A DNA stretch of 64,000 nt from the sequence record NC_047884.1. The stretch is one strand, 5' to 3'. Source of the DNA: Escherichia phage saus132. A program made the position numbers and the translations under genes. Shown piece after piece: positions 1,516 through 58,534 of this stretch. Each line of letters starts with the position of its first letter. The stretch's first letter is position 1. Under the pieces are notes generated by a model. It did no database searches and was not told where the DNA came from. It saw only the letters and a list, made by a program, of their open reading frames with translations.

Positions 1516-1532
1516 TGTACAAGGAGGGCTAA

Positions 1533-2219
1533 ATGGTACGAAGGAAGTTAGATAAAGACACTATCAATAAAGATTTAGAGCCTAGAAGAATTAAGCTAAT
1601 AAGTGAGTATTCTGGAATCCTTAATAAAGGCACATTCATATGTAGTGTAGGTCATACATGGGAAGCTACTGTTAATAATGTAAGGAATAGCAAATCTGGC
1701 TGTCCAATATGCGCAGGTACTTTTAAACTTACTAAAGATTCGGTAAATGAAGGGTTACGTAGTAGGGGTATTACTCTTATTGGAGAGTATAAAAATAATG
1801 CTACTAAAACTCTTTTTGAATGTGAGCATGGGCATAGGTGGGAAGCCACAGTAGGCAATGTAAAGAATAAAAATTCTGGGTGTCCTGTGTGCGATACTGA
1901 TTGGAATACCCCTGGTTTTATATACATTATGTGTAGTAGTATGGGAACTAAAATAGGAATTAGTATCTCTCCTGAAAGACGGTGGAAAGAGATAGTTAAA
2001 AGCTCCAATATACTAGATTTATATATTTTTGGTGTCTATTCAATAGATTCTGGTACCAAATCTAAAAGTAGGTCTATCGAGAAACAGACTCATGAATATT
2101 TTTCAGAATATAGATTAAAGTATACAGGATTTGCTGGATGTACTGAATTCTTTGATATATCTCCCATAGCCGTAGAAAAGCACTTAATTAATAATGGGTG
2201 TATAAAGGTAGAAAAATAA
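1533..2219 (+). CDS. Putative GIY-YIG-like (T5orf172-type) nuclease with two N-terminal zinc-ribbon repeats
   Basis: Duplicated HxWEATVxNV...SGCPxC repeat; C-terminal GFIYIM...KIGIS segment; very AT-rich island. Confidence 0.5.
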   Translation: MVRRKLDKDTINKDLEPRRIKLISEYSGILNKGTFICSVGHTWEATVNNVRNSKSGCPICAGTFKLTKDSVNEGLRSRGITLIGEYKNNATKTLFECEHGHRWEATVGNVKNKNSGCPVCDTDWNTPGFIYIMCSSMGTKIGISISPERRWKEIVKSSNILDLYIFGVYSIDSGTKSKSRSIEKQTHEYFSEYRLKYTGFAGCTEFFDISPIAVEKHLINNGCIKVEK

Positions 2220-2284
2220 ATAAAGTACTTGCTTATATTACTTTTATTTGATATTATATTATTATAAATTAGAGAGGAGGGTGT

Positions 2285-2644
2285 ATGAAATTAAAACCAT
2301 TTATTGTTGTATCTAAACTAGGGCATTATCACGTAGGAGTAGATACAATTCAGGAAGCTATTTTTGCTGCTACAGGTGATTACTCATTACTAGAAGGTAT
2401 TGGGTATCCTACATTACTAGGAGACTTCGTAGAGCAAGAACTAGATATTACTGTCTATAATCCTATATATGAAGAACCTGAAGACTTAAAAGAGACTCTA
2501 GAATTTGTATACTGGAACCACTTACAAGTATTTAATGTTACCTCTAATGGCACAGAGGATTTCTCTTCTGCTATTAAGTATTATATTAAACAAGTTTACT
2601 ATGATTATTTCTATGAGGATATTGGAGCGGAGCTAAAAGTATGA
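2285..2644 (+). CDS. Hypothetical protein
   Basis: ORF with strong RBS GAGAGGAGGG upstream. Confidence 0.6.
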   Translation: MKLKPFIVVSKLGHYHVGVDTIQEAIFAATGDYSLLEGIGYPTLLGDFVEQELDITVYNPIYEEPEDLKETLEFVYWNHLQVFNVTSNGTEDFSSAIKYYIKQVYYDYFYEDIGAELKV

Positions 2645-2844
2645 AAAACGTAAAACATCTTAAGTATCGCTTAATTTACAACGGACGTATGGAAATAGAA
2701 GATCTAGCTCAGCTAGCGATCAATTCAGATGAAGTTACAGTTCGTGCTTTGTCCATCGAGAAGCTGCGTGCTTCTTACGAAAATCGTATTATGGAATTAG
2801 AGGAGAAACTTTATGGCATTCTCGAGTCAGAAGCTACCAGGTGA
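2641..2844 (+). CDS. Hypothetical small protein
   Basis: ORF start overlaps upstream stop (ATGA). Confidence 0.45.
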   Translation: MKNVKHLKYRLIYNGRMEIEDLAQLAINSDEVTVRALSIEKLRASYENRIMELEEKLYGILESEATR

Positions 2845-3058
2845 AAATGTTAGTCTTATTGATCTGAATAAGCTCAATCAAGAGTTTCAGGGAGTTTTAA
2901 TGAAGCACTGGGAAACTGGTTATAAGGATGGTGTTGAATCCTGTGCTACTATGCTAGAAGTTCTTGCTGATAACCTAGTGGAGAAAGGCAATAAAGAATT
3001 AGCTGAGCTGTTAGACAGTATTGGGCAAAACTTTAGAGAACAGGTGAAAAATGCGTAG
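2813..3058 (+). CDS. Hypothetical small protein (start uncertain)
   Basis: ORF in operon context; no motif recognised. Confidence 0.4.
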   Translation: MAFSSQKLPGENVSLIDLNKLNQEFQGVLMKHWETGYKDGVESCATMLEVLADNLVEKGNKELAELLDSIGQNFREQVKNA

Positions 3059-3902
3059 ACTAATCGTTGTTAGTGGTGCAGGTTTGAGTGTAGATAGTGG
3101 TGTTCGTGCTTTCCGTACTGATACTGCTAGTGGGAAATCCTTGTGGGATGAGTACGATCTAGAGGAAGTATGTAGCTTGCCTAACTTTGAAGCTGGCTTC
3201 CGTCGCTTCTGTGGTGAAGATGATCCTAACTACTTCAGTGCTCGTTTCCCTGGCATTGATGAAGATGGTAACGATCTGTATCTCAAGACTCATGAGTTCT
3301 ACAACATGCGTCGTCAGGAATTACAGACTGTTGAGCCTAACATTGCCCATCTGCGAATTGCAGAATGGTTCCAGCGTTATGGTGCGGATAGCGTGAAGAA
3401 CTTCACTACTAACGTTGATGACCTTCTGGAGCGCGCTGGTATCCCTCGTGATGAAATCATCCATGCTCACGGATACTTGAAAGAGGTGATCTATCGTCGG
3501 GGTCGCAATCAAATCATCGAAGATGTTGGATACACTGCAATTGTTCCTGAAGATTACGAATGGGTAAAACCAAACGTGGTGTTCTTTGGTGAAACAGCTC
3601 CGTGGTACATGGGTCAGATCAACCTGTTTGATACGCTTACTAGCAATGATATGGTTATTGTGGTGGGTTGTAGCAACCAAGTTATCAACTTCAACTGGGA
3701 ATTATTCCCTGCTGTATGTCGTGGAACTAAGATGATGGTTGTTAACCCTCAAGTTCGTTATGATGAACAGCTTGAGTATGAGAAACGTGGTGTTACTGTA
3801 TGGCGGGCTGGAGCTGCCGAAGTTTTTGGTAACAAGAATTTCATTGGTCAAGTAGAAGCCTTTATGGAAGGAACTATTTATGCACCGCAAGAGCATGTGT
3901 GA
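3051..3902 (+). CDS. Sir2-family (sirtuin-like) NAD-dependent enzyme lacking the zinc-ribbon cysteines
   Basis: Motifs VVSGAGLSVDSGVRAFR (GAGxS), TTNVD, catalytic HG, VVFFGE, VVGCS; no CxxC pairs between HG and FGE. Confidence 0.7.
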   Translation: MRRLIVVSGAGLSVDSGVRAFRTDTASGKSLWDEYDLEEVCSLPNFEAGFRRFCGEDDPNYFSARFPGIDEDGNDLYLKTHEFYNMRRQELQTVEPNIAHLRIAEWFQRYGADSVKNFTTNVDDLLERAGIPRDEIIHAHGYLKEVIYRRGRNQIIEDVGYTAIVPEDYEWVKPNVVFFGETAPWYMGQINLFDTLTSNDMVIVVGCSNQVINFNWELFPAVCRGTKMMVVNPQVRYDEQLEYEKRGVTVWRAGAAEVFGNKNFIGQVEAFMEGTIYAPQEHV

Positions 3903-9188: not shown

Positions 9189-9217
9189 TTGCTTTCAGAA
9201 AAATTTTTCTGTATAAT
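9189..9217 (+). promoter_or_regulatory. PN25-like strong early promoter
   Basis: AAATTTATTTGCTTTCAG-AAAATTTTTCTGTATAATAGATTCATAAATTTGAGAGAGGAG matches the published T5 PN25 sequence (from memory) almost base for base. Confidence 0.8.
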
Positions 9218-9248
9218 AGATTCATAAATTTGAGAGAGGAGTTTAAAT

Positions 9249-11768: not shown

Positions 11769-11963
11769 ATGGCAATAACACTTCCAAAGATTCAAGCAAA
11801 ACTTAATTTGCTCTCCATAGCAAGAATCAATTACCAGGATAGTATCGGCACTCCAAACCAGAAAGCGTACAAAGATGCGTGGTTGAAAGAAGCTGCTGAT
11901 TTAGCTGGTATGGCTGCGCAGTATAGTAAAGAACTCAAAATGGAAATCGCAGATGATGAATAA
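11769..11963 (+). CDS. Hypothetical small protein
   Basis: ORF abutting upstream stop. Confidence 0.45.
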   Translation: MAITLPKIQAKLNLLSIARINYQDSIGTPNQKAYKDAWLKEAADLAGMAAQYSKELKMEIADDE

Positions 11964-12927
11964 TGTAAAAGACTTTATTAAACGTTGTCAAGAAGCGTAC
12001 TACCAGGGAATGAGTCTTATTTCCGATGAAGAATATGATCGTCTGATTAAAAGATTCCCACTAGAGGAAGAAATCGGACCGAAAGGTGATATCCCTCATT
12101 TGTATCGTATGTATTCTTTGCAGAAAGTCTATTACGATCGTGGTGATAAAGCTCCATTCAACCCACTTGGTCAGGTTGAAACTGATAAGTTAGATGGTTG
12201 TGCGATTTCTCTATTATATATTAATGGTGAATTTATTCAAGCGTTAACTCGTGGTAACGGTATTCTAGGGAATGATGTAACGCATAATGTTAAAATGCTG
12301 AACATCCCTAAAACTATCTCCCAAAAAGTTCCAACTCAAATCACTGGTGAAGTTCTCATCACTAAAGAAGTAGAGAACAAACGTAACTATGCTTCCGGTG
12401 CTATTAACTTGAAAGATAGTGATGATTTCATGCAACGTATTGGTGAAGGTGGTTTAATCTTCGTTGCATATGGTATCCAGTGTTCAGCGGAAACAGTCGG
12501 TATTACAGAAGCCTATTTAAAAGATATGCTTTGGCTAGAGAATGAGAACTTCTTGACAGTTGTTAATGTTCGTTCCTTCTTTAAGTGGATTCCGACGGAT
12601 GGTAAAGTTGTTCGTATTAATGATAACAACAAATTCTTCCGTGAAGGTTGGACTAATAAATTTCCTCGCGGTGCATTTGCTATTAAAGAGGATGAAGAAG
12701 GCGAAATTACCACACTTGTTAAAGTTGAATGGCAAGTAGGGGCTTCTGGTAAAGTAACTCCAGTTGGTTATTTCGAACCGGTGATTATTGATGATGCCAC
12801 AATCGTTAAAGCAACTCTTAATAACGTTGATTATATTAACGCTCTCGATTTAGAGATCGGTTGCCAGATTCGAGTGATTCGTGCTGGTGGTGTAATCCCT
12901 TGTATAGTAGAGCGAGTATACGACTAA
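11953..12927 (+). CDS. NAD-dependent DNA ligase, N-terminal (adenylation) part of a split gene
   Basis: Adenylation motif KLDGCAISLLY (KxDG) in LigA-like context. Confidence 0.85.
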   Translation: MMNNVKDFIKRCQEAYYQGMSLISDEEYDRLIKRFPLEEEIGPKGDIPHLYRMYSLQKVYYDRGDKAPFNPLGQVETDKLDGCAISLLYINGEFIQALTRGNGILGNDVTHNVKMLNIPKTISQKVPTQITGEVLITKEVENKRNYASGAINLKDSDDFMQRIGEGGLIFVAYGIQCSAETVGITEAYLKDMLWLENENFLTVVNVRSFFKWIPTDGKVVRINDNNKFFREGWTNKFPRGAFAIKEDEEGEITTLVKVEWQVGASGKVTPVGYFEPVIIDDATIVKATLNNVDYINALDLEIGCQIRVIRAGGVIPCIVERVYD

Positions 12928-13070: not shown

Positions 13071-13099
13071 TTGCTAAATGCTTAAATACTTGCTATAAT
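13071..13099 (+). promoter_or_regulatory. Early promoter before ligase C-terminal ORF
   Basis: TTGCTA, 17 bp spacer, TGcTATAAT, then ATTTATATAAATTGATAAGGAAG. Confidence 0.5.
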
Positions 13100-13129: not shown

Positions 13130-13909
13130 ATGAAAATCGAAATTCCAACACAATGTCCCTCTTGTGGTTCTAAGCTAGATCTTGTCAACGGGCAATTATT
13201 CTGTAGGAATAAGTCCAACTGTCCAGCACAATCAAGTAAGTTAATCGAGAACTTCTGCACAAAAATGAAGTTAAAGGGCTTTGGCCCGAAAACTATTGAG
13301 AAGCTGGAACTGACTAAGATCTCAGAACTGTTTTACCTGACCGAAGAAGATTTGGTCGGAGCTGTGGGTAGCAAGGTTGCCGCTAAGTTGATTAGCGAGT
13401 TAAATACTAAGGTTCGCGGAGACATTGACTTTGGTTCGGTTCTCGGTTCTTTAGGAATTCCTCTTATTGGAGAGGTTGCAGCAAAGAAACTGTCCCAAAA
13501 TTGCACTAGCTTCCACGATGTGAAGGCTGACGGCAAGGCTGGAGAAAATTACAAAACCTGGCTAAATTCCCCACAAGGCAAGGATGTTATTGAATTACCA
13601 TGGAAATTCTCAACTGGTATTCGAGGTACTAAAGCTGATATCATCATTACGGATGATTTAGTTGCCCAGCCAAATGGAATCACGATCTGTATTACCGGAT
13701 CTTTGCAAGATTTTGCAAATCGAACGGATGCAACAAACTATTTAGAAAGTCTAGGATATACGGTTAAGAAATCCGTTACCAAAGACGTCAAATACCTAAT
13801 CTGTGAGGATGAATCAAAACGTTCTTCCTCATCTTATAAGAAAGCCGAAACGAATGGGATAGAAATCCTGTCGATTAAAGAACTATTGGAGAAAAATAAT
13901 AATGTCTAA
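13130..13909 (+). CDS. NAD-dependent DNA ligase, C-terminal part (zinc finger, HhH, BRCT-like)
   Basis: CPSCGSKL...CRNKSNCPAQ Cys4 zinc finger; GIPLIGEVAAKKL HhH-like; C-terminal BRCT-like region. Confidence 0.85.
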   Translation: MKIEIPTQCPSCGSKLDLVNGQLFCRNKSNCPAQSSKLIENFCTKMKLKGFGPKTIEKLELTKISELFYLTEEDLVGAVGSKVAAKLISELNTKVRGDIDFGSVLGSLGIPLIGEVAAKKLSQNCTSFHDVKADGKAGENYKTWLNSPQGKDVIELPWKFSTGIRGTKADIIITDDLVAQPNGITICITGSLQDFANRTDATNYLESLGYTVKKSVTKDVKYLICEDESKRSSSSYKKAETNGIEILSIKELLEKNNNV

Positions 13910-21575: not shown

Positions 21576-22106
21576 ATGATAACACAAGATAAGCTCAAAG
21601 AACTTTTCGAGTATAACCCAGATACAGGTGATTTTACTCGTAGAGTAGCTAAAGGTAGAGCTGCAAAAGGAAGTATTGCTGGATCTCGTAACTCTAATGG
21701 TTATGTCTATATAAAAATAGATAAAATATCTTATCCTGCACATAGGCTTGCCTTCCTATACGTGGAAGGCAGGCTTCCTGAAGAGATAGACCATATTAAT
21801 CGTATAAGATGGGATAATAGGTGGAATAACTTGCGAGAGACCACACATCAACAAAACTGCAGAAATAGAAACACTAGAAGTACTTCTGGATATTTAGGCG
21901 TACATTGGGATAATAATTCTTCTAAATGGAAGGTAGAGATAACTAACTGTATAGGTGTTAAAATATACGGTGGGTTATTCCCTTATGAGGAATTAGAGTT
22001 AGCTATAGATAAAGCTAATGAACTTAGAGCACAGCATCTAGGCATGGATTCCAGACAAGAACTATTCAAAGGATATATTTGTCGACGTGAGGACTTAGAT
22101 AAGTAA
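21576..22106 (+). CDS. HNH homing endonuclease with AP2-type DNA-binding domain
   Basis: EIDHINRIRWDNRWNNLRETTHQQN (HNH_3-like) then SGYLGVHWDNNSSKWKVEI (AP2-like). Confidence 0.75.
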   Translation: MITQDKLKELFEYNPDTGDFTRRVAKGRAAKGSIAGSRNSNGYVYIKIDKISYPAHRLAFLYVEGRLPEEIDHINRIRWDNRWNNLRETTHQQNCRNRNTRSTSGYLGVHWDNNSSKWKVEITNCIGVKIYGGLFPYEELELAIDKANELRAQHLGMDSRQELFKGYICRREDLDK

Positions 22107-23439: not shown

Positions 23440-24417
23440 ATGAGAATACTATTTAGTGCTGATCATCATATCAAATTAGGACAAGATAAAGTTCCAAAGG
23501 AATGGCAGAAGCGTCGCTTCCTGATGCTAGGAGAACGGTTAAATGACATATTCCATAATCATAACTGTGATCTGCATATTGCTGGTGGTGATATTCTTGA
23601 TGTTGCCGACCCATCGTCGGAAGAAATAGAACTTCTTGAACAGTTCATGTCAAGACTTGACCATTCAGGCAAGATCTTCACTGGGAACCATGAAATGTTA
23701 ACTAAAACTATTTCATGTCTGTATCATTATGCAGGAGTTATTAATAAAGTAACAAACGGAAATTGGGAAGTCATTACTAAACCATATCGTTCTCCTGAAT
23801 TTGATATTATCCCTTATGATGAAATCCACAAACCAAAGTGGAAACCATCTGAGTCAAAACTATGTTTCACGCATGTTCGTGGTGAAATCCCTCCACATGT
23901 AAAACCAGAGATTGATCTAACGAGGTATAACTGTTATGACACTGTAATTGCTGGCGATTTACATTCTTATACTAATAGTCAAACTGTTGGTTCTACTAGA
24001 CTTCTTTATCCAGGATCTCCATTAACTACATCGTTCCATAGAGAACGAACAAAAGGTACAAATGGTTGTTTTATCATTGATACCGACACATTAAAAGTAG
24101 AATGGATTGAACTTGGTGACTTACCACAACTGATTCGTAAAACAATCGGAGTTGGTGAGGAAATGGAGCCTAGTGACTATGACCGTGTAATTTATGAAGT
24201 CACTGGTGACGTCGTTCAGTTAAAGTCTATTAAAGATTCTGATCTCTTAGATAAAAAGATTAACCATCGAGTTACTAAAGATGCTAAGTTAAATCTTGTT
24301 GATCTTGATATGTTAGGCGAGCTTGAGCTTTACTTCCGTGAAGTTGAAAAGCTGTCTCAAGACGACATTGATAGAATCTTGGCTAGAGCTGCTAAATATG
24401 TCAAAGATTATAATTAA
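23440..24417 (+). CDS. SbcD/Mre11-like metallophosphatase nuclease
   Basis: Motifs ADHH, AGGDILD, GNHE. Confidence 0.85.
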   Translation: MRILFSADHHIKLGQDKVPKEWQKRRFLMLGERLNDIFHNHNCDLHIAGGDILDVADPSSEEIELLEQFMSRLDHSGKIFTGNHEMLTKTISCLYHYAGVINKVTNGNWEVITKPYRSPEFDIIPYDEIHKPKWKPSESKLCFTHVRGEIPPHVKPEIDLTRYNCYDTVIAGDLHSYTNSQTVGSTRLLYPGSPLTTSFHRERTKGTNGCFIIDTDTLKVEWIELGDLPQLIRKTIGVGEEMEPSDYDRVIYEVTGDVVQLKSIKDSDLLDKKINHRVTKDAKLNLVDLDMLGELELYFREVEKLSQDDIDRILARAAKYVKDYN

Positions 24418-26236
24418 GACACTAAAATTCAGCAACGTTATGTCTTACGGTAAGGATACCGTAATTCATTTCGATAAGAATCCAGTTACTCAGTTAATCG
24501 GAGGAAACGGTCTAGGGAAGTCCACTATTGCTACTGTTATTGAGGAATTGTTTTATAACAAGAACTCACGTGGTATCAAGAAGGACGCCCTATTCTCTTG
24601 GGGTTCTCCGAAGAAAGAGTATGATATGCATGCTTACTTCTCGAAAGATGAAGATGAGTATGAATTGCATAAAGTAGTTAAATCAACTGCTAAGGTTACA
24701 CTGATTAAGAATGGAGAAGATATCAGTGGACACACAGCAACTCAAACGTACAAGATGATTGAAGAGATTATGGGTGGTGACTTCCAAACATTCACTAAAC
24801 TAATCTATCAATCTGTTGGTTCCAATCTAGACTTCCTCAAAGCAACTGATGCAACACGTAAAGCTTTTCTTGTTAATCTGTTCAATCAGGAACAGTATAA
24901 AGAGATGTCAGAAACTATTAAGGCTGATCGTAAAGAAGTGGCAAGTACGTTAAGTAACTTGCAAGGCCAGATGGCCGTAATTACGAAGATCCTCAATGGA
25001 AAAGGTAATCTCGGAAGTTTACAGGAGCCAGTTGAAGTTCCAGAATTTGATGAAGAACCGTTAGCACAAGAACTTACTGAATCGAAAATTAAGGCGGCAT
25101 TAGCCAAGTCACAAGAGGCTAATATTACTAAACTCCGTAATTTGGACAAAGCTGTACAAGTTGCCGAACAATCTTTCGAGCCTTTCAAAAATTTCCCTGC
25201 GCCCACCGACCAATCTGAAGAGATCTCAAGTGTTACGCGTGACTTAACGATTGTTGCCTCACGTGCGGGAGAAGTCAAGAAACGTTATCAGAAGTTTAAG
25301 CAAGAGGCTTCAAATACTGAATGTCCTACTTGTGGTACGCATCTTGATACAACTGCTGCTCAAAAAGCAATGGATATGGCTAGAACAGAATATGATCCTC
25401 TGTTTAAAGAGAAACAATCTCTTGAAGCTACATTGGAGCAGTTGAAGAAAGAACAAGTCGAGTACACTGCGTATACTAGAGCTAAGGATGCTTTGGATAA
25501 GGCAATAGAAGCTAGGGACGAGTTCAAAAATTCAATGAGTGATGCTTCTTTTGAAGAACTCAATGTGCAAATCCTACAGGTGCAAATCCGACAATTAGAA
25601 CAGGAAATCGCTGATGGCCGTTCTAAAGTTGCAATTGCCAAAGAGCATAATGTAAATGTCGAATTAGCCAATGCAAAATATAAAGCGAAACTAGAACAGA
25701 TTGAAAAAGCTGAGGCAGAAATGTCTGAGATAACGTCCAAACTGGATGGAGTATCAGAAGCTGTTGCTGATCTTGATATTCTGATCGCTGCATTGAAAAA
25801 TCTGGTAGGATATAAACTAGAGCATAGTGTGAAAGTATTTGAGGAATTGATTAATAAATATCTTTCTATTATGACTGGTGGTAAGTTCGCACTTGGATTT
25901 GAACTTGATGAAACTAAATTACAAGTAGTAATCTTCAATGATGGAAACCGCACCAGTATGGAGAACTGCTCTACAGGTCAGCAAAGTAGAATTAACCTAG
26001 CAACTCTGTTAGCAATTCGAATGCTGTTAACATCTATTAGTAAAGTTAATATTAATCTTCTGTTCCTTGACGAAGTTATTAGCTTTATTGATACGAAAGG
26101 ACTTGATACTCTCGTTGAATTATTAAATGAGGAGGATAGTCTGAATTCTATCATTGTTTCTCATGGGCATACGCATCCATTAGCCCATAAGATTACTGTC
26201 AAAAAAGATGCAGAAGGATTTTCCTACTTAGAATAA
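24398..26236 (+). CDS. SbcC/Rad50-like ATPase
   Basis: Walker A GGNGLGKST, CPTCG zinc hook, signature CSTGQQSRINLA, Walker B LLFLDEV; start at ATG 24398 (track start 24323 overlaps SbcD). Confidence 0.85.
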   Translation: MSKIIIKTLKFSNVMSYGKDTVIHFDKNPVTQLIGGNGLGKSTIATVIEELFYNKNSRGIKKDALFSWGSPKKEYDMHAYFSKDEDEYELHKVVKSTAKVTLIKNGEDISGHTATQTYKMIEEIMGGDFQTFTKLIYQSVGSNLDFLKATDATRKAFLVNLFNQEQYKEMSETIKADRKEVASTLSNLQGQMAVITKILNGKGNLGSLQEPVEVPEFDEEPLAQELTESKIKAALAKSQEANITKLRNLDKAVQVAEQSFEPFKNFPAPTDQSEEISSVTRDLTIVASRAGEVKKRYQKFKQEASNTECPTCGTHLDTTAAQKAMDMARTEYDPLFKEKQSLEATLEQLKKEQVEYTAYTRAKDALDKAIEARDEFKNSMSDASFEELNVQILQVQIRQLEQEIADGRSKVAIAKEHNVNVELANAKYKAKLEQIEKAEAEMSEITSKLDGVSEAVADLDILIAALKNLVGYKLEHSVKVFEELINKYLSIMTGGKFALGFELDETKLQVVIFNDGNRTSMENCSTGQQSRINLATLLAIRMLLTSISKVNINLLFLDEVISFIDTKGLDTLVELLNEEDSLNSIIVSHGHTHPLAHKITVKKDAEGFSYLE

Positions 26237-48127: not shown

Positions 48128-48610
48128 TTAGCCTCCAACACCAGGGTTAATTGTAGTTACACACTCGTTAGAAGTAATAGAAGTAGATTTACTATCCGTT
48201 ACAACAACTTTGTAAGTACCAGCATCTTCTGCAGCAGCTGTAGCTTTGTTGAAATTAGGGCCAGTAACACCACTTAGTGGAGAACCGTCTTTAGTCCAAG
48301 CATAAGTATATGGTGCAGTACCACCAGTAACTGTTACGCCCAGATTAATTGCTGCACCAGTATCAACAGCTAGAGTTTTAGCCAGATTCTTCGTGAAAGC
48401 TAGAGCCGGAACAACCGGAGCAGTAACTTCGTATGCTTCTTTGAACTTATTCCAAACCTTGCGGTTGGTATGTGCAGTGGTCATTCCAAACTCTTTACGT
48501 AGAGTAGCGTAGTTTGGAACGAACTTGTGTGCTGCAACCGTAGCAAAGAAGATATGAGATTCTGGCAGCTTTTCACCAAAAATGGCCTTTAGACCATCAT
48601 AATCAATCAT
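48128..48610 (-). CDS. Capsid decoration protein with C-terminal Ig-like domain (T5 pb10-like)
   Basis: 160 aa; C-terminal GGTAPYTYAWTKDGSPL...AGTYKVVVTD Ig-like segment. Confidence 0.7.
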   Translation of the reverse strand: MIDYDGLKAIFGEKLPESHIFFATVAAHKFVPNYATLRKEFGMTTAHTNRKVWNKFKEAYEVTAPVVPALAFTKNLAKTLAVDTGAAINLGVTVTGGTAPYTYAWTKDGSPLSGVTGPNFNKATAAAEDAGTYKVVVTDSKSTSITSNECVTTINPGVGG

Positions 48611-49824
48611 TCTTTATCCCCATCGGCAGTGCCTTGCGGTCTACCACCTTCTTGACCAGATACACCTGTTGCAGAACCAGCAACGTTAGCAGGAATACGA
48701 ATCTTATTCATCTGCTCATCATCTAAAGGTTCAAGGTTAAGCTCTTCACGAGCCTCGTTACCAGTCATGATACCGTTATTAACCAAAGAGGTTAAATGTT
48801 TAGCCTCAGCTTCTTTATCTGGCGTCAGTGCAGCTACTTCCTTAGTATTAGGAGTAACCTTGTAGCCAAAGAAGAAAGTAAGAGAACTAGTCAGCTTGTT
48901 CAGCATAGGAATGATAGTCATGTAATAGAACAATTCGATGTTTGGTCGAATGTTAGCATTATTACCACCATCAAGTAACACTTGCGGAACACCAAAGGCA
49001 AGACAGATGGATTTATTAAATCCTTCGATATCTTCCTTGAAGTCTAGATCTTTAAAAGAGGATATTTGGGAGTACGGTTTTGCTTTCATACCACCATCTA
49101 GAATCAGGACAGTAGACTGACCCGTACTAGGATTATAATCGAGTTGTAATTCTTCTTGTTTACGCTCACGCAATTTCTTGTTCAGGATTTCATCCGTCTC
49201 AAGAATAAGACCAATCACTGTGCCGTTATCGAGGAACTTCTCTTTAAAGTTAAGCATTTTAGAACGCTTCTCAAGAGAGTCAATAACTGTAGCAACACGA
49301 GATTGTCCAGAAATTTGGGAGTTTGTGCCACACACGTAACTGTTATCCTTTATAAAGATAATCTCATCTACGCGATAGTCTATCTGGTTATTAAATATGA
49401 ATTTTTTGATAAACTTATTGGCATCTGCCTCTACTTGCATTAGTGCAGCAGGGACATGGTAAAGTGCTGTGCCATCCCAATAGATGTATGCACAACCCTC
49501 AAAAAGTAGGTCAGTGACTACAAGTCTACGGAATGTGCTTATATCCATGAATGGATTAGGTCGTACATTTAAGAGAGTGTCTAGAGTCTTTGCCTTGACG
49601 CCATTAGCGTACGTGACAATATTATATTTATCTCCGACAGTATAAGAACACTCCGCCGCACTATCAATAACCATGTTAGCAGTTCGGTTGAGAATCTCAA
49701 TCTTACTGTAGGCTTGTCCAGTGGTAAAGGGCTTACGGTTAGTGCGATGACTAACTGGTTCCATGTCTCTTATAATACGTTGACCCGGATTTAGCTTTTC
49801 AGTAATCCAGCTTTTTAAACCCAT
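48607..49824 (-). CDS. Portal protein
   Basis: 405 aa ORF between terminase region and head genes. Confidence 0.75.
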   Translation of the reverse strand: MGLKSWITEKLNPGQRIIRDMEPVSHRTNRKPFTTGQAYSKIEILNRTANMVIDSAAECSYTVGDKYNIVTYANGVKAKTLDTLLNVRPNPFMDISTFRRLVVTDLLFEGCAYIYWDGTALYHVPAALMQVEADANKFIKKFIFNNQIDYRVDEIIFIKDNSYVCGTNSQISGQSRVATVIDSLEKRSKMLNFKEKFLDNGTVIGLILETDEILNKKLRERKQEELQLDYNPSTGQSTVLILDGGMKAKPYSQISSFKDLDFKEDIEGFNKSICLAFGVPQVLLDGGNNANIRPNIELFYYMTIIPMLNKLTSSLTFFFGYKVTPNTKEVAALTPDKEAEAKHLTSLVNNGIMTGNEAREELNLEPLDDEQMNKIRIPANVAGSATGVSGQEGGRPQGTADGDKE

Positions 49825-50348
49825 TATAAGAACCTTGCGAATCCTGATTTAGTTTCAGTCTTGACTTGTGTCTTTTCTTGAGGATTCTGTAGCTTTTCCT
49901 TTTGTTTAAGAACCCATGCCTTCTGCTTATTAGCAGAAAAAAGGGGAGGTTCCTTAGTGTACACCTTATGTAATAGTTGGTGATGGTGGACACAAAGGGT
50001 AACAGTGTCATCTACTAGCTCATGCCTATATCTTTCATAGAATGCCGTCCTATTTGAGAGGACTGTTTCTTCGTCAGTGAAATCCAATTGGAGTTCTTTA
50101 GCAAATTTTTTAACTAGTAGAGACACTGTATGGTAATGATGAAGCTCTAATTCTTCACCACAACCACAGATTTCGCAGCGATCGGCTTTTTTATATTGAC
50201 TTTTTATACCGTCTCGCATGAGTGATATAGCATCACGTTTATATTTTACATTTCCTGCCACAGTATTCTCCTCAACTGTATGAATATAGTATACATAATC
50301 ATGTCGAATTTGTAAAGGGGATTTTAAAATGCAGGAATGGGATACCAA
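49824..50348 (-). CDS. HNH-type endonuclease-like protein between terminase and portal (start uncertain)
   Basis: CEICGCGEELELHHYH...CVHHHQLLH Cys/His cluster. Confidence 0.5.
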   Translation of the reverse strand: MVSHSCILKSPLQIRHDYVYYIHTVEENTVAGNVKYKRDAISLMRDGIKSQYKKADRCEICGCGEELELHHYHTVSLLVKKFAKELQLDFTDEETVLSNRTAFYERYRHELVDDTVTLCVHHHQLLHKVYTKEPPLFSANKQKAWVLKQKEKLQNPQEKTQVKTETKSGFARFL

Positions 50349-50375
50349 CTGAGTAGTATCCCATCCTATACTTAT

Positions 50376-51692
50376 TTATTTCCCACGGGAAATTGAGTAA
50401 ATTCCATAACGCAGTGCGTCACAAAGGTGAGAGTTCGCATCATGACGTGGTTTTTCACGTGATAATTTCTCTTCGCCCTCCTGGAAGTCCCACTTGTAGT
50501 TCGCTAGGGCGTGGATCAGTGAGGTACATGAAGCATCTACGATGATCTTACCTTGCTGGAACAGTGCTTGTAGGCATGCCAGACCATCTAGGACAGATTT
50601 CTTAGCAGGAGCAGAAGCGATTTCATGTTCATATGCTAAGTCCTGACGGAACTGAGCAGCAGCGGAGTCTACAAATATACGATCAACGTTATAACGATCT
50701 ATACAGTGCTGTATGTAAGCAGCGTGTTGAGCTGTAGTCTTTTCAGCCTGCTGATACTCTTCTAATACGTAATAAACATCAGTATCATAGTGGTACTTGA
50801 TAGTAAGAACTGCTGTAGGATCACGATAACCAACGTCGATACCAAGTAATGTTTCGAAAGCCTCATCATCTTTAAAGAAGTGACGCATACCCTTGAGGTC
50901 TTTAACATGTTCGATAGCATTGAAGGTGTCAAAGATCTGACCTTCGAATACGGAGAAATCAGCCTCATATTCTTGACGAAAATAGTTTTTACTAACAGTA
51001 CGACGCGCTTCTTCGATATCGTTCAGGTCAGCGCGTGGGTTATCACGATATGTACCATGAATAGATACCCAGTTAGGTAACGTTTCATTAAATCCTTTCT
51101 CGTAGAACTCTTTGAACCAGTTACCACCACGAGGTGTAGAAATAAATAGAGCTTTAGAGTTTGGTTTATCTAGGGTAGGACGTAACTGAATATCGAAAGC
51201 TGCACCACCAACGTCGGAAATCGCTGCTTCGTCAAAAATGATGAAGTCATATGAACGACCAACCGCGGAGTCAGCCTGTGCCGCAGAAGCCAGCTTAAAG
51301 AGAGAACCATTCGCTAGTTCAATCTCCTTATCTTTGGCGTTCTCACGTTCAGTCTGTAGTCCATATTTCTTAATAAGACCACGAATCTGAGACCAACCGA
51401 TGTTAGCCAGTGAGTAGTTAGGTGCAACTACTAGCACCTTCACATTAGGCTCCAGAAGCTTCAGGAACCCAAGTGTATATGCGATGAATGACTTACCTAC
51501 ACGACGTGATACACATGCAGTTACGAAACGGTGTCTAGGATCTTCCAGCGCGTTAATAATTGCAACCTGAGGGGCATTAGGTGTAATTCCCTCTTGTGCT
51601 AGGATGCTAGAGACTGGTAGACGAAAGAATCGTTTGTCAATACCAAAGTCAATAACATCTGTGGTGTTAATATAATCTCTAGAGACTTTCAT
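50376..51692 (-). CDS. Terminase large subunit
   Basis: 438 aa; Walker A CVSRRVGKSF; C-terminal nuclease acidic motifs DVGYRDPT and DSAAAQ. Confidence 0.9.
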   Translation of the reverse strand: MKVSRDYINTTDVIDFGIDKRFFRLPVSSILAQEGITPNAPQVAIINALEDPRHRFVTACVSRRVGKSFIAYTLGFLKLLEPNVKVLVVAPNYSLANIGWSQIRGLIKKYGLQTERENAKDKEIELANGSLFKLASAAQADSAVGRSYDFIIFDEAAISDVGGAAFDIQLRPTLDKPNSKALFISTPRGGNWFKEFYEKGFNETLPNWVSIHGTYRDNPRADLNDIEEARRTVSKNYFRQEYEADFSVFEGQIFDTFNAIEHVKDLKGMRHFFKDDEAFETLLGIDVGYRDPTAVLTIKYHYDTDVYYVLEEYQQAEKTTAQHAAYIQHCIDRYNVDRIFVDSAAAQFRQDLAYEHEIASAPAKKSVLDGLACLQALFQQGKIIVDASCTSLIHALANYKWDFQEGEEKLSREKPRHDANSHLCDALRYGIYSISRGK

Positions 51693-56869: not shown

Positions 56870-58534
56870 TTATGCAAAGAATTTTCCATTCTTAAAGTCA
56901 ATCAAAGTACGCTGCCCGTTTGCGTATGTAATTAAATGGGTTTGCGTCCAGCTACTAGCGCCAACGTTGTAACCCATATCGAGACTACCAGCAACGCCAG
57001 CGGTATAAACGCCGCCATAAATACTAGCCGTGTGAGTGTGGCCAGTATTGAGGCGTCCCAACTTTTTGAACTGTTTTGGATTGCCCCGACTGCCATTAAT
57101 GCCGTTGTGACCATGAACACCGCATTCAATTCCTGCAATCTTGAAAGATTGGTCAGTGGTTAGGAAAATGGCGTTAAATTCGCAACCTGCAACGTTTCTA
57201 AGCGCGTAATCCAATACGTTAAAGGTATCATCTTGTTTTGCAATAGCTGCATAAATCGCGGCGTTTAGGCTGTGATACAGTTCGGCGTTTGCGGGGTCGT
57301 CTTTAATGTTAGCGTTGCGATCATCAAGCCAACGGGATAACGCCAAATCATGATTGGATTCCACGATGATTGTTTGAGAAAAATCGCGCTCCATTGACTC
57401 CAACACGCGACCGGTATCAATGAGATCGTCAATAACTTTGTCACGTCCGGCGGCGTACTGTTTAGCTAGGAATACACCAGAGGCACGATTATGATGATTG
57501 CGGGATGTAAAATCGTGTACGTCATGGATAAACTGATATTTCGGTTTAAGAATATCAAGCAAGCTATTTTCGCCCACCCATGATGCAACGGCGCAATCAT
57601 CATCTAATTTTTCGGCGTGAATATCGCCATATTGCAAGCCTAAAACATGATCAGATGTTTTGAAACATCCGGTGGGCACAGCGCAAACGTTCAAATCGTA
57701 GAACATCCCGCTTTCGTCCATAGTTTCAAGCTGGCGAACAAAAAATTCTCCGTCGTCGTCAAATTCTACCAGTAAAGCACCGAAATTATGCAGCGCCTCG
57801 GCCTTTTGTCCTGCCTTTTGCTGAATATAGTTTTTAAGTGTAGCCGTTCCGGTGGAGTACATACGGCGCACTACTTCACCTTTTAACGCTGGCACACTTT
57901 CAGCGGTAATTTTTGCGTGACCAATTGCCAGACCTTCGATGTTTAAAGCCGTTGCAGTTTCTGCGAATCCAGAAAGCGGATAATCTGCCGTTGGTAATAC
58001 ATTAATTTCAGCCATGAAAGCAAAACGGCGATTATTCAAAAACACGTTTTTCTCACAAATATATTTATCAAATGCGGGATCATATTTGATTTTTTCGCCG
58101 CCTTCCCCGTTCTGAAATCCGTTTTTGTTGTAAATGAATTTGCTAACAAGTAATTCAGCGCCGTAATAACTAGCGTACTGCTCAAGCGCTTTCAAAAAGT
58201 TTTTATGCGGGAAAGTATTGTTTTGAATCGACGTTAGAATAAAACGGCGACCGGATTTAACTTCCCACTGTTCAACGGTGCTAGAAACAATCCCCGCCGC
58301 TTCTGGGCGATCATCGTTTTTAATGGCTTTTACTGCCTTCGCTGCCTTCGGTTTCGCTGGCTTATTTGCTTCCAACCAGTCACAAATTGCCGTTGAATGT
58401 TTCGGCGTATCATAAACAGCTTTTGAAATATCGTCGCAAACTTCCAATTTAGTAGCGCGTAAACGCTTACCGTAGAAGTTAAAATCTGCGGCCATTTTCA
58501 AAATTTGAGCTTGTTTTTCTGCGGAAATATTCAT
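56870..58534 (-). CDS. A1: A1-like pre-early protein (calcineurin-type metallophosphatase motifs)
   Basis: 554 aa; motifs GDIHAEK, GHNGINGSRGNP, GHTHTASIY; size matches remembered T5 A1. Confidence 0.75.
   Translation of the reverse strand: MNISAEKQAQILKMAADFNFYGKRLRATKLEVCDDISKAVYDTPKHSTAICDWLEANKPAKPKAAKAVKAIKNDDRPEAAGIVSSTVEQWEVKSGRRFILTSIQNNTFPHKNFLKALEQYASYYGAELLVSKFIYNKNGFQNGEGGEKIKYDPAFDKYICEKNVFLNNRRFAFMAEINVLPTADYPLSGFAETATALNIEGLAIGHAKITAESVPALKGEVVRRMYSTGTATLKNYIQQKAGQKAEALHNFGALLVEFDDDGEFFVRQLETMDESGMFYDLNVCAVPTGCFKTSDHVLGLQYGDIHAEKLDDDCAVASWVGENSLLDILKPKYQFIHDVHDFTSRNHHNRASGVFLAKQYAAGRDKVIDDLIDTGRVLESMERDFSQTIIVESNHDLALSRWLDDRNANIKDDPANAELYHSLNAAIYAAIAKQDDTFNVLDYALRNVAGCEFNAIFLTTDQSFKIAGIECGVHGHNGINGSRGNPKQFKKLGRLNTGHTHTASIYGGVYTAGVAGSLDMGYNVGASSWTQTHLITYANGQRTLIDFKNGKFFA

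Follow-up and report, generated by a model that had tools for sequence, protein, structure and literature searches.

A putative free-standing homing endonuclease gene of the T5orf172 type at a predicted early promoter next to nrdD in T5-like phages

Described T5orf172 nucleases and the nrdD-adjacent gene

Homing endonuclease genes of the T5orf172 type are abundant in T5-like phages (Barth, Dunham & Seed 2023, PMC10448857). According to the same study, at least one CapR/DUF723-type finger is present in 87% of them, the fingers being repeated like beads on a string, ribonucleotide reductase genes are found in 33% of their neighbourhoods, and the genes mark boundaries of genetic exchange. The locus analysed here, adjacent to nrdD, fits all four of these points, namely a T5-like genome, fingers, a ribonucleotide reductase neighbour and an exchange boundary. 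Like the published genes (including gp165 and gp174 of ICP1), it combines the nuclease domain with tandem fingers on its N-terminal side and is free-standing; it differs from them in that its fingers score best with DUF4379 and not with DUF723, and an exact insertion site, a dual-promoter layout and three allele classes are described here.

A comparison at the level of the catalytic domain is offered by Odn (ICP1 gp88), a T5orf172 nuclease that cleaves DNA in vitro and whose cleavage is abolished by the E180A substitution (PMC8263062). The T5orf172 family keeps an Arg and a Glu, without the His/Tyr of helix 1 (PMC8263062), and, compared by motif position, both conserved residues are found in the protein studied here. 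However, Odn has a RepA_N DNA-binding domain of its own, targets a satellite replication origin and acts as an anti-parasite weapon, not as a homing element. The gene nrdB is the cleavage target of Hef, a free-standing homing endonuclease (2010 review), and Hef-like genes, the F-Lim enzymes, were reported in the LIMEstone paper on a Dickeya phage. In our tblastn searches, phages of the ViI and Dickeya groups matched the nuclease protein at 28–34%. Hef of the T4-related phage U5 was reportedly described by Sandegren and colleagues in 2005. In the T4 SegA–G/I-TevI family the domain order is reversed, the nuclease domain being C-terminal in the present protein; T4 Seg enzymes also lack DUF4379 fingers, whereas the protein described here remains below threshold for PF01541 and has KIG in place of YIG.

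The window, by which we mean the whole 64 kb stretch of DNA that was analysed, is 100% identical to the T5-like phage chee130_1 and to four sibling isolates (MF431736 and others; Epseptimavirus), and its position 1 corresponds to position 57987 of the matching record. The gene of interest is labelled ‘hypothetical protein’ in the source record MF431736 (locus tag P1301_0101), and the chee130_1 genome paper lists ORF 101 only as ‘unknown’, among the genes differing from the closest relative EPS7. The orthologue of mar003J3 (99.6% protein identity) is annotated as ‘putative Hef-like homing endonuclease’, a label that comes from database annotation alone, and two other records label the gene ‘endonuclease’.

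We consider that the product of 1533–2219 is probably a free-standing homing endonuclease belonging to the T5orf172 branch of the GIY-YIG superfamily; the enzyme would cleave a specific target and home into it. The class is already described, and in a lineage known to harbour many such selfish elements the gene would be a typical example; current understanding is unchanged by it. Its main value lies in annotation, as P1301_0101 (MF431736) and several relatives could pass from ‘hypothetical protein’ to putative T5orf172/GIY-YIG-type free-standing homing endonuclease with two fingers. Beyond this, the locus offers a clean natural example of a barely characterised class: its empty and filled sites can be compared exactly, alleles of three classes occur at one junction, and a paralogue lies across nrdD. 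It could serve for target-site mapping and for studying the part played by such genes in deciding where recombination boundaries fall in T5-like phages, a group of use in biocontrol.

The features in the following list are all on the plus strand:
12–1445, 3′ part of nrdD, anaerobic ribonucleotide reductase large subunit (NRDD 2.6e-133, Gly_radical 9.6e-23; annotated in MF431736)
1452–1486, intrinsic terminator of nrdD, 10-bp stem followed by a T run (terminator scan, alignment)
1487–1515, putative T5-type early promoter P1, TTGCTT-N17-TATAAT (consensus only; conserved in filled and empty sites)
1518–2261, inserted cassette of 744 bp, absent from chee24-type empty sites
1521–1527, Shine-Dalgarno sequence AAGGAGG, 5 nt before the ATG (read directly from the sequence)
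1533–2219, nuclease ORF, 228 aa, ATG start, P1301_0101
1542–1712, zinc-finger repeat 1, residues 4–60 (best Pfam DUF4379 stretch, residues 35–62; repeat comparison)
1722–1892, zinc-finger repeat 2, residues 64–120 (CapR, residues 79–120, and the second DUF4379 stretch)
1902–2216, T5orf172/MUG113-type GIY-YIG nuclease domain, residues 124–228
2229–2257, second putative T5-type promoter copy P2, TTGCTT-N17-TATTAT, at the 3′ end of the cassette (one mismatch to the pattern)
2285–2644, ORF of 119 aa, function unknown (PHROG 11748), variable neighbour present with or without the nuclease gene

Tandem fingers and a C-terminal nuclease domain

The ORF at 1533–2219 that the original prediction had picked out was recovered with the same coordinates, intact, on the plus strand and with 228 codons' worth of protein. 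Its GC content is 33.8% versus a window mean of 40.1% (SD 2.8%, 687-bp windows), which places it among the lowest 1.2% of 687-bp windows, and the low-GC tract extends past it to approximately 2644 (spacer 21.5% GC, next ORF 32.8%). The same prediction had spoken of a very AT-rich island: the low GC is real, but ‘very’ was an overstatement, the dip being moderate and running through the next ORF. Neither the whole protein nor either of its halves retrieved a nuclease paralogue by tblastn within the 64 kb, and a tRNA scan of the window returned none.

Two copies of one motif, HTWEATVNNVRNSKSGCPIC (residues 41–60) and HRWEATVGNVKNKNSGCPVC (residues 101–120), are present, as originally noticed; the repeated units are in fact longer than this motif, spanning residues approximately 4–60 and 64–120, and share 54% identity over 56 aa (BLASTP E 1e-22). 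Pfam DUF4379 (‘probable treble clef zinc finger’) matched two stretches with 49.2 bits (cut-off 24.5) and is the best-scoring finger family; the Pfam CapR homology domain matched residues 79–120 with 34.5 bits (cut-off 24.2), and DUF723 scored only 0.014. Both repeats display the pattern Cys-x3-His ... Cys-x2-Cys, the presumed zinc ligands being C37, H41, C57 and C60 in the first and C97, H101, C117 and C120 in the second, of which C37, C60, C97, H101, C117 and C120 are invariant in one of the alignments (A4). The profile matches and the four ligands per repeat thus point to fingers of the DUF4379/CapR type, for which binding of zinc and DNA is predicted. In the structural model, each of the two units is predicted to consist of a helix, three strands and a helix. 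An assignment to the HNH endonucleases was considered and rejected: the match to PHROG 559 ‘HNH endonuclease’ (1e-19) covers the fingers only (residues 13–122), and the HNH families of Pfam gave no match in the nuclease protein.

The finger repeats are also similar in DNA (76–79% over about 65 bp), both within the gene (window 1650–1711 versus the second repeat, approximately 1830–1891) and between the two nuclease genes that flank nrdD (window 1821–1886 versus 1689–1754 of the metagenomic contig L016). Such similarity could permit recombination between finger modules, as reported for homing endonuclease genes of ICP1.

The segments GFIYIM (residues 128–133) and KIGIS (residues 140–144), which had been likened at the outset to a T5orf172 domain, both lie inside the region matching MUG113 and T5orf172. 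The profile search proposed along with that likeness (GIY-YIG, T5orf172/MUG113) bears it out, as MUG113 (32.4 bits versus a cut-off of 22.3, residues 140–216) and T5orf172 (25.9 bits versus 20, residues 128–216) both pass. The canonical GIY-YIG profile PF01541 stayed below its gathering score (16.0 bits versus 22.6, residues 128–153 only), and the protein is therefore filed under the T5orf172 branch rather than under PF01541. Nearly the whole protein (residues 6–224) matches PHROG 681 ‘endonuclease’ (3e-49). With the nuclease domain alone, a word-indexed homologue search gave no match, and an exhaustive HMMER search with residues 121–228 retrieved 48 representative proteins, most of them 200–300 aa long with the domain at the C-terminus.

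Residue conservation was read from an alignment of 30 of these 48 homologues (25–45% identity). No variation was seen at Y131, K140, G142, R150, E183, F200, G202, E205 or F207, and very little at H187; the conserved residues of the domain proper are Y131, K140-I141-G142, R150, E183, H187 and E205. The second motif is thus K-I-G and not Y-I-G, K140 itself being invariant. A catalytic-type residue set appears to be present, with Y131 as the Tyr of the first motif, R150 as the Arg of helix 1 and E205 as the Glu of strand 3, and this pattern fits both the Tyr/Arg/Glu set that is key in Odn and the description of the T5orf172 family. By motif position (G-x-T-E-F strand), Glu205 is the likely counterpart of Odn E180. 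The AlphaFold model (mean pLDDT 77, from a shallow alignment) displays a beta-beta-alpha-beta-alpha domain after the finger units, and the predicted fold is closest to solved GIY-YIG nucleases. A sequence search of the PDB returned no match at E ≤ 1, nor did a search of NCBIfam return any. Among predicted structures of viral proteins, 214 matches were obtained at E ≤ 0.001; many bear the names T5orf172, CapR-homology or treble-clef zinc-finger, and they come from giant viruses as well as from phages with diverse hosts.

Insertion site, promoter copies and neighbouring genes

The window starts inside nrdD, the conserved left neighbour of the cassette, and the nrdD terminator is nearly invariant in all 13 of the 13 phages compared. 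Inserted exactly between the -10 box of P1, which follows nrdD, and the next gene's ribosome-binding site, the cassette brings with it the nuclease ORF, a ribosome-binding site for this ORF and another copy of the promoter. Its limits are defined by relatives that possess the 119-aa ORF without the nuclease gene (chee24, JLBYU43, 2-3 and Stp1); in chee24, 4 bp stand in place of window 1516–2261 (blastn). The two types of site can be read as follows:

— Empty sites display the promoter, then ATTTATAAATTTGAGAGGAG, then the start of the next gene, the junction being written TATAATTG/ATTTATAAATT.

— Filled sites display the promoter, then TACAAGGAGGGCTAAATG, the ribosome-binding site and start codon of the nuclease gene itself. 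The left junction falls directly after TATAAT(T/A)G, 2 bp past the -10 box of the TTGCTT-N17-TATAAT promoter.

Without the cassette, P1 would drive the small gene downstream; here it would drive the nuclease gene. P2 is conserved in all three allele classes and is followed by the same type of leader of the downstream gene, whose transcription it would restore. The pattern TTGCTT-N17-TATAAT, which we take to resemble classic T5 early promoters such as PN25, was detected eight times in the window versus 1.0 expected. P1 and P2 were both found by this pattern search; a sigma-70 scan did not report them because TTGCTT fits only three of the six positions of TTGACA. The copies start at 1487, 2229, 9189, 10221, 11438, 13071 and 53992 on the plus strand, and one lies on the minus strand (24407–24435). 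The copy at 9189–9239 continues with ATTCATAAATTTGAGAGAGG and is, we presume, close to the classic PN25 promoter and leader. The match at 13071–13099 lies in the gap of about 200 bp between the two coding sequences (11956–12927 and 13130–13909, plus strand) as which the DNA ligase is annotated, possibly a split gene or an annotation artefact.

To the right of the nuclease ORF come three small ORFs of unknown function, then a Sir2-family gene (3051–3902). The first of them, the 119-aa ORF, is found in 45 records, about 30 of which are without the nuclease gene. As the same site holds an ORF of 93 aa in phage bastian, we asked whether the two could be diverged alleles; they share no similarity, which makes them alternative cargo. 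Further downstream, the interval from the 67-aa ORF to the Sir2-family gene (window 2641–3902, plus strand) is strongly mosaic among relatives and forms a hot spot of exchange: the 81-aa ORF (2813–3058) is replaced or absent in several phages, and the DNA identity of the Sir2 gene ranges from about 67% to 100%. PADLOC returned no match for the Sir2 gene.

Spread of the cassette, homing and alternative explanations

The 4.2-kb neighbourhood matched 440 phage records, and DNA of the nuclease gene was detected in 15 of them (12 distinct genomes), with an identity of 99% or more in 13 and of about 89.5% in two. A single left junction, TATAAT(T/A)G, was retrieved in seven carrier loci and six empty sites, and even the allele of L016, a metagenomic T5-like contig, only 59% identical in protein, displays the identical junction. 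The gene is thus polymorphic in its presence among close relatives, at one precise site. The comparison of presence and absence that the original prediction had called for therefore agrees with it, and neither of the two observations named there as speaking against it, the lack of any nuclease-domain match and strict conservation at this locus in all relatives, was made.

The cassette has also spread recently and horizontally, being more alike between carriers than are its flanks. Indeed, the nuclease gene is 99–100% identical between genomes whose adjacent nrdD differs by 8–10%: the left flank (nrdD 3′ end) and the cassette diverge by 9.9% and 0.27%, respectively, in mar003J3 (Fisher p 1e-20), and by 7.8% and 0.94% in KKP_3831 (Fisher p 2e-11). 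On the right, the tract of near-identity stops near 2211–2261, the right end of the cassette, in MSP1 and KKP_3831, and takes in the 119-aa ORF as well in mar003J3 and SE3, into which this ORF moved with the nuclease gene (99.8% identity in mar003J3). The carriers 1Sgal2PP, SUT_E1620 and L016 possess the nuclease gene without the 119-aa ORF; therefore, the nuclease cassette is the recurring unit. All seven carrier alleles read (that of the window and six others) are intact, and comparison with the 89.5% allele gave a dN/dS of 0.18 overall (fingers 0.10, nuclease domain 0.29), so that the protein is under purifying selection and maintained. A gene that is maintained by selection, sporadic, fixed in site and recently moved presents the signature expected of a free-standing homing endonuclease gene. 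The ‘selfish or homing nuclease’ first suggested from the sequence thereby gains support from the domains, the sporadic presence at one junction, the recent spread and the purifying selection.

Such an element could operate as follows. The protein would be built like beads on a string, its two tandem Cys-His-Cys-Cys fingers (DUF4379/CapR type) reading the DNA target and its C-terminal domain of GIY-YIG fold (Tyr131, Arg150, Glu205) cutting it. The 744-bp cassette appears to lie roughly where transcription from the T5-type early promoter past the nrdD terminator would begin, so that the nuclease gene would be expressed early from P1 through its own Shine-Dalgarno sequence. P2, at the 3′ end of the cassette, would keep the downstream gene on, so the burden of the insertion on the phage would be small. 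In a cell infected by both a carrier and a non-carrier T5-like phage, the enzyme would break the non-carrier genome near the intergenic site downstream of nrdD, presumably by double-strand cleavage and not by nicking, and recombinational repair off the carrier genome would copy the cassette in, sometimes with adjoining DNA; homing of this kind would be ongoing.

Other members of the family occur around nrdD and elsewhere. In phages 2-3, JLBYU43 and Stp1 and in contig L016, a paralogue lies directly upstream of nrdD and overlaps its start (L005 1–627, L006 1–612, L007 766–1629 and L016 1407–2078 in our locus extracts), i.e. to the left of the window start. The paralogue of Stp1, with a length of 287 aa, has three fingers and the nuclease domain and shares 44% identity with the window protein. 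The nrdD DNA of 2-3, JLBYU43 and Stp1 is only about 66–70% identical to that of the window, and their DNA past the terminator/promoter is 86–98% identical, which places the nrdD breakpoint at the terminator/promoter module. Thus, with a paralogue upstream, the cassette downstream and divergent nrdD between them, two insertion sites of the family bracket nrdD, whose alleles seem to be swapped wholesale. In T5, a 34%-identical homologue (T5p150) and a small ORF lie between the terminase and portal genes. The corresponding interval of the window (approx. 49825–50375, between portal, 48607–49824, and terminase large subunit, 50376–51692, both on the minus strand) holds only a 47-aa ORF and non-coding DNA, and so has the appearance of an unoccupied site of a further family member.

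A bolder version of the homing scheme is that the target is the conserved terminator/early-promoter module itself, and that promoter-site cassettes, together with the paralogue at the nrdD 5′ end, bracket nrdD and drive the wholesale replacement of its alleles among T5-like phages. The insertion at the transcription start, the replacement promoter brought along and the three allele classes with conserved ends are the features on which this idea draws, and we regard it as speculative and rather unlikely.

Alternatively, the cassette could be passive cargo, carried between genomes by homologous recombination of the usual kind, which would act at the terminator/promoter module and the promoter copies in a manner comparable to the promoter-stem-loop-mediated shuffling of T4-type phages, while the nuclease serves marker exclusion or an anti-satellite role. 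Promoter copies do flank the gene (1487–1515 and 2229–2257), the terminator/promoter stretch hardly varies, even in phages whose nrdD identity is as low as 66–69%, and the same site swaps unrelated small ORFs without the nuclease gene (93 aa in bastian versus 119 aa here). For the 59% allele, identity is 100% at the 5′ ends, about 90% at the 3′ ends and 50–70% in the interior, and Odn of ICP1 provides a precedent for a redeployed T5orf172 nuclease. No long co-conversion tract shared by the carriers, which could have pointed to the cut site, was found in nrdD: carriers differ in nrdD haplotype, and their near-identity is lost no further than about 25 bp from the left junction. However, the nuclease gene always sits at one junction, and its near-identity across backgrounds diverged by 8–10% implies that it spread faster than its neighbours. 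Its paralogues adjoin conserved genes of essential type (upstream of nrdD in 2-3, JLBYU43, Stp1 and L016; terminase-portal in T5), as is typical of homing endonuclease genes, and PADLOC found no defence-family match for the nuclease protein. Passive transport is accordingly held to be a minor possibility, and homing remains the preferred reading.

Two further roles would spare the enzyme its double-strand cut. The gene could be a domesticated or decaying relic, either a non-cleaving, sequence-specific DNA-binding regulator like PLE CapR, a repressor that arose from the finger part of genes of this kind, or a nickase. The match of the fingers to the CapR homology domain, the KIG in place of YIG, the dN/dS that is higher in the nuclease domain (0.29) than in the fingers (0.10) and the position directly at a promoter are all compatible with such a fate. 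Yet none of the 30 homologues departs from Y131, R150 or E205, purifying selection continues to act on the nuclease domain and all alleles are full-length, and a regulator required by the phage would not be missing from about 97% of relatives; because of the invariant catalytic-type residues and this widespread absence, we judge a regulator or a decayed enzyme improbable. A site-specific nuclease architecture in a T5-like phage also recalls the site-specific single-strand nicks of T5-type virion DNA, all the more as some GIY-YIG enzymes nick. The gene is, however, absent from most T5-like phages at the nrdD locus, which makes this role very unlikely, close to negligible; T5 itself has only the 34%-identical homologue, at a different locus, and its nick formation is annotated to another gene, sciB. 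A free-standing homing endonuclease thus remains the probable identity of P1301_0101.

The window also contains a second, unrelated free-standing endonuclease gene (21576–22106, plus strand), located directly after a DNA helicase gene; it matches Pfam HNH_3 (1.1e-14) and is labelled ‘homing endonuclease’ in the record.
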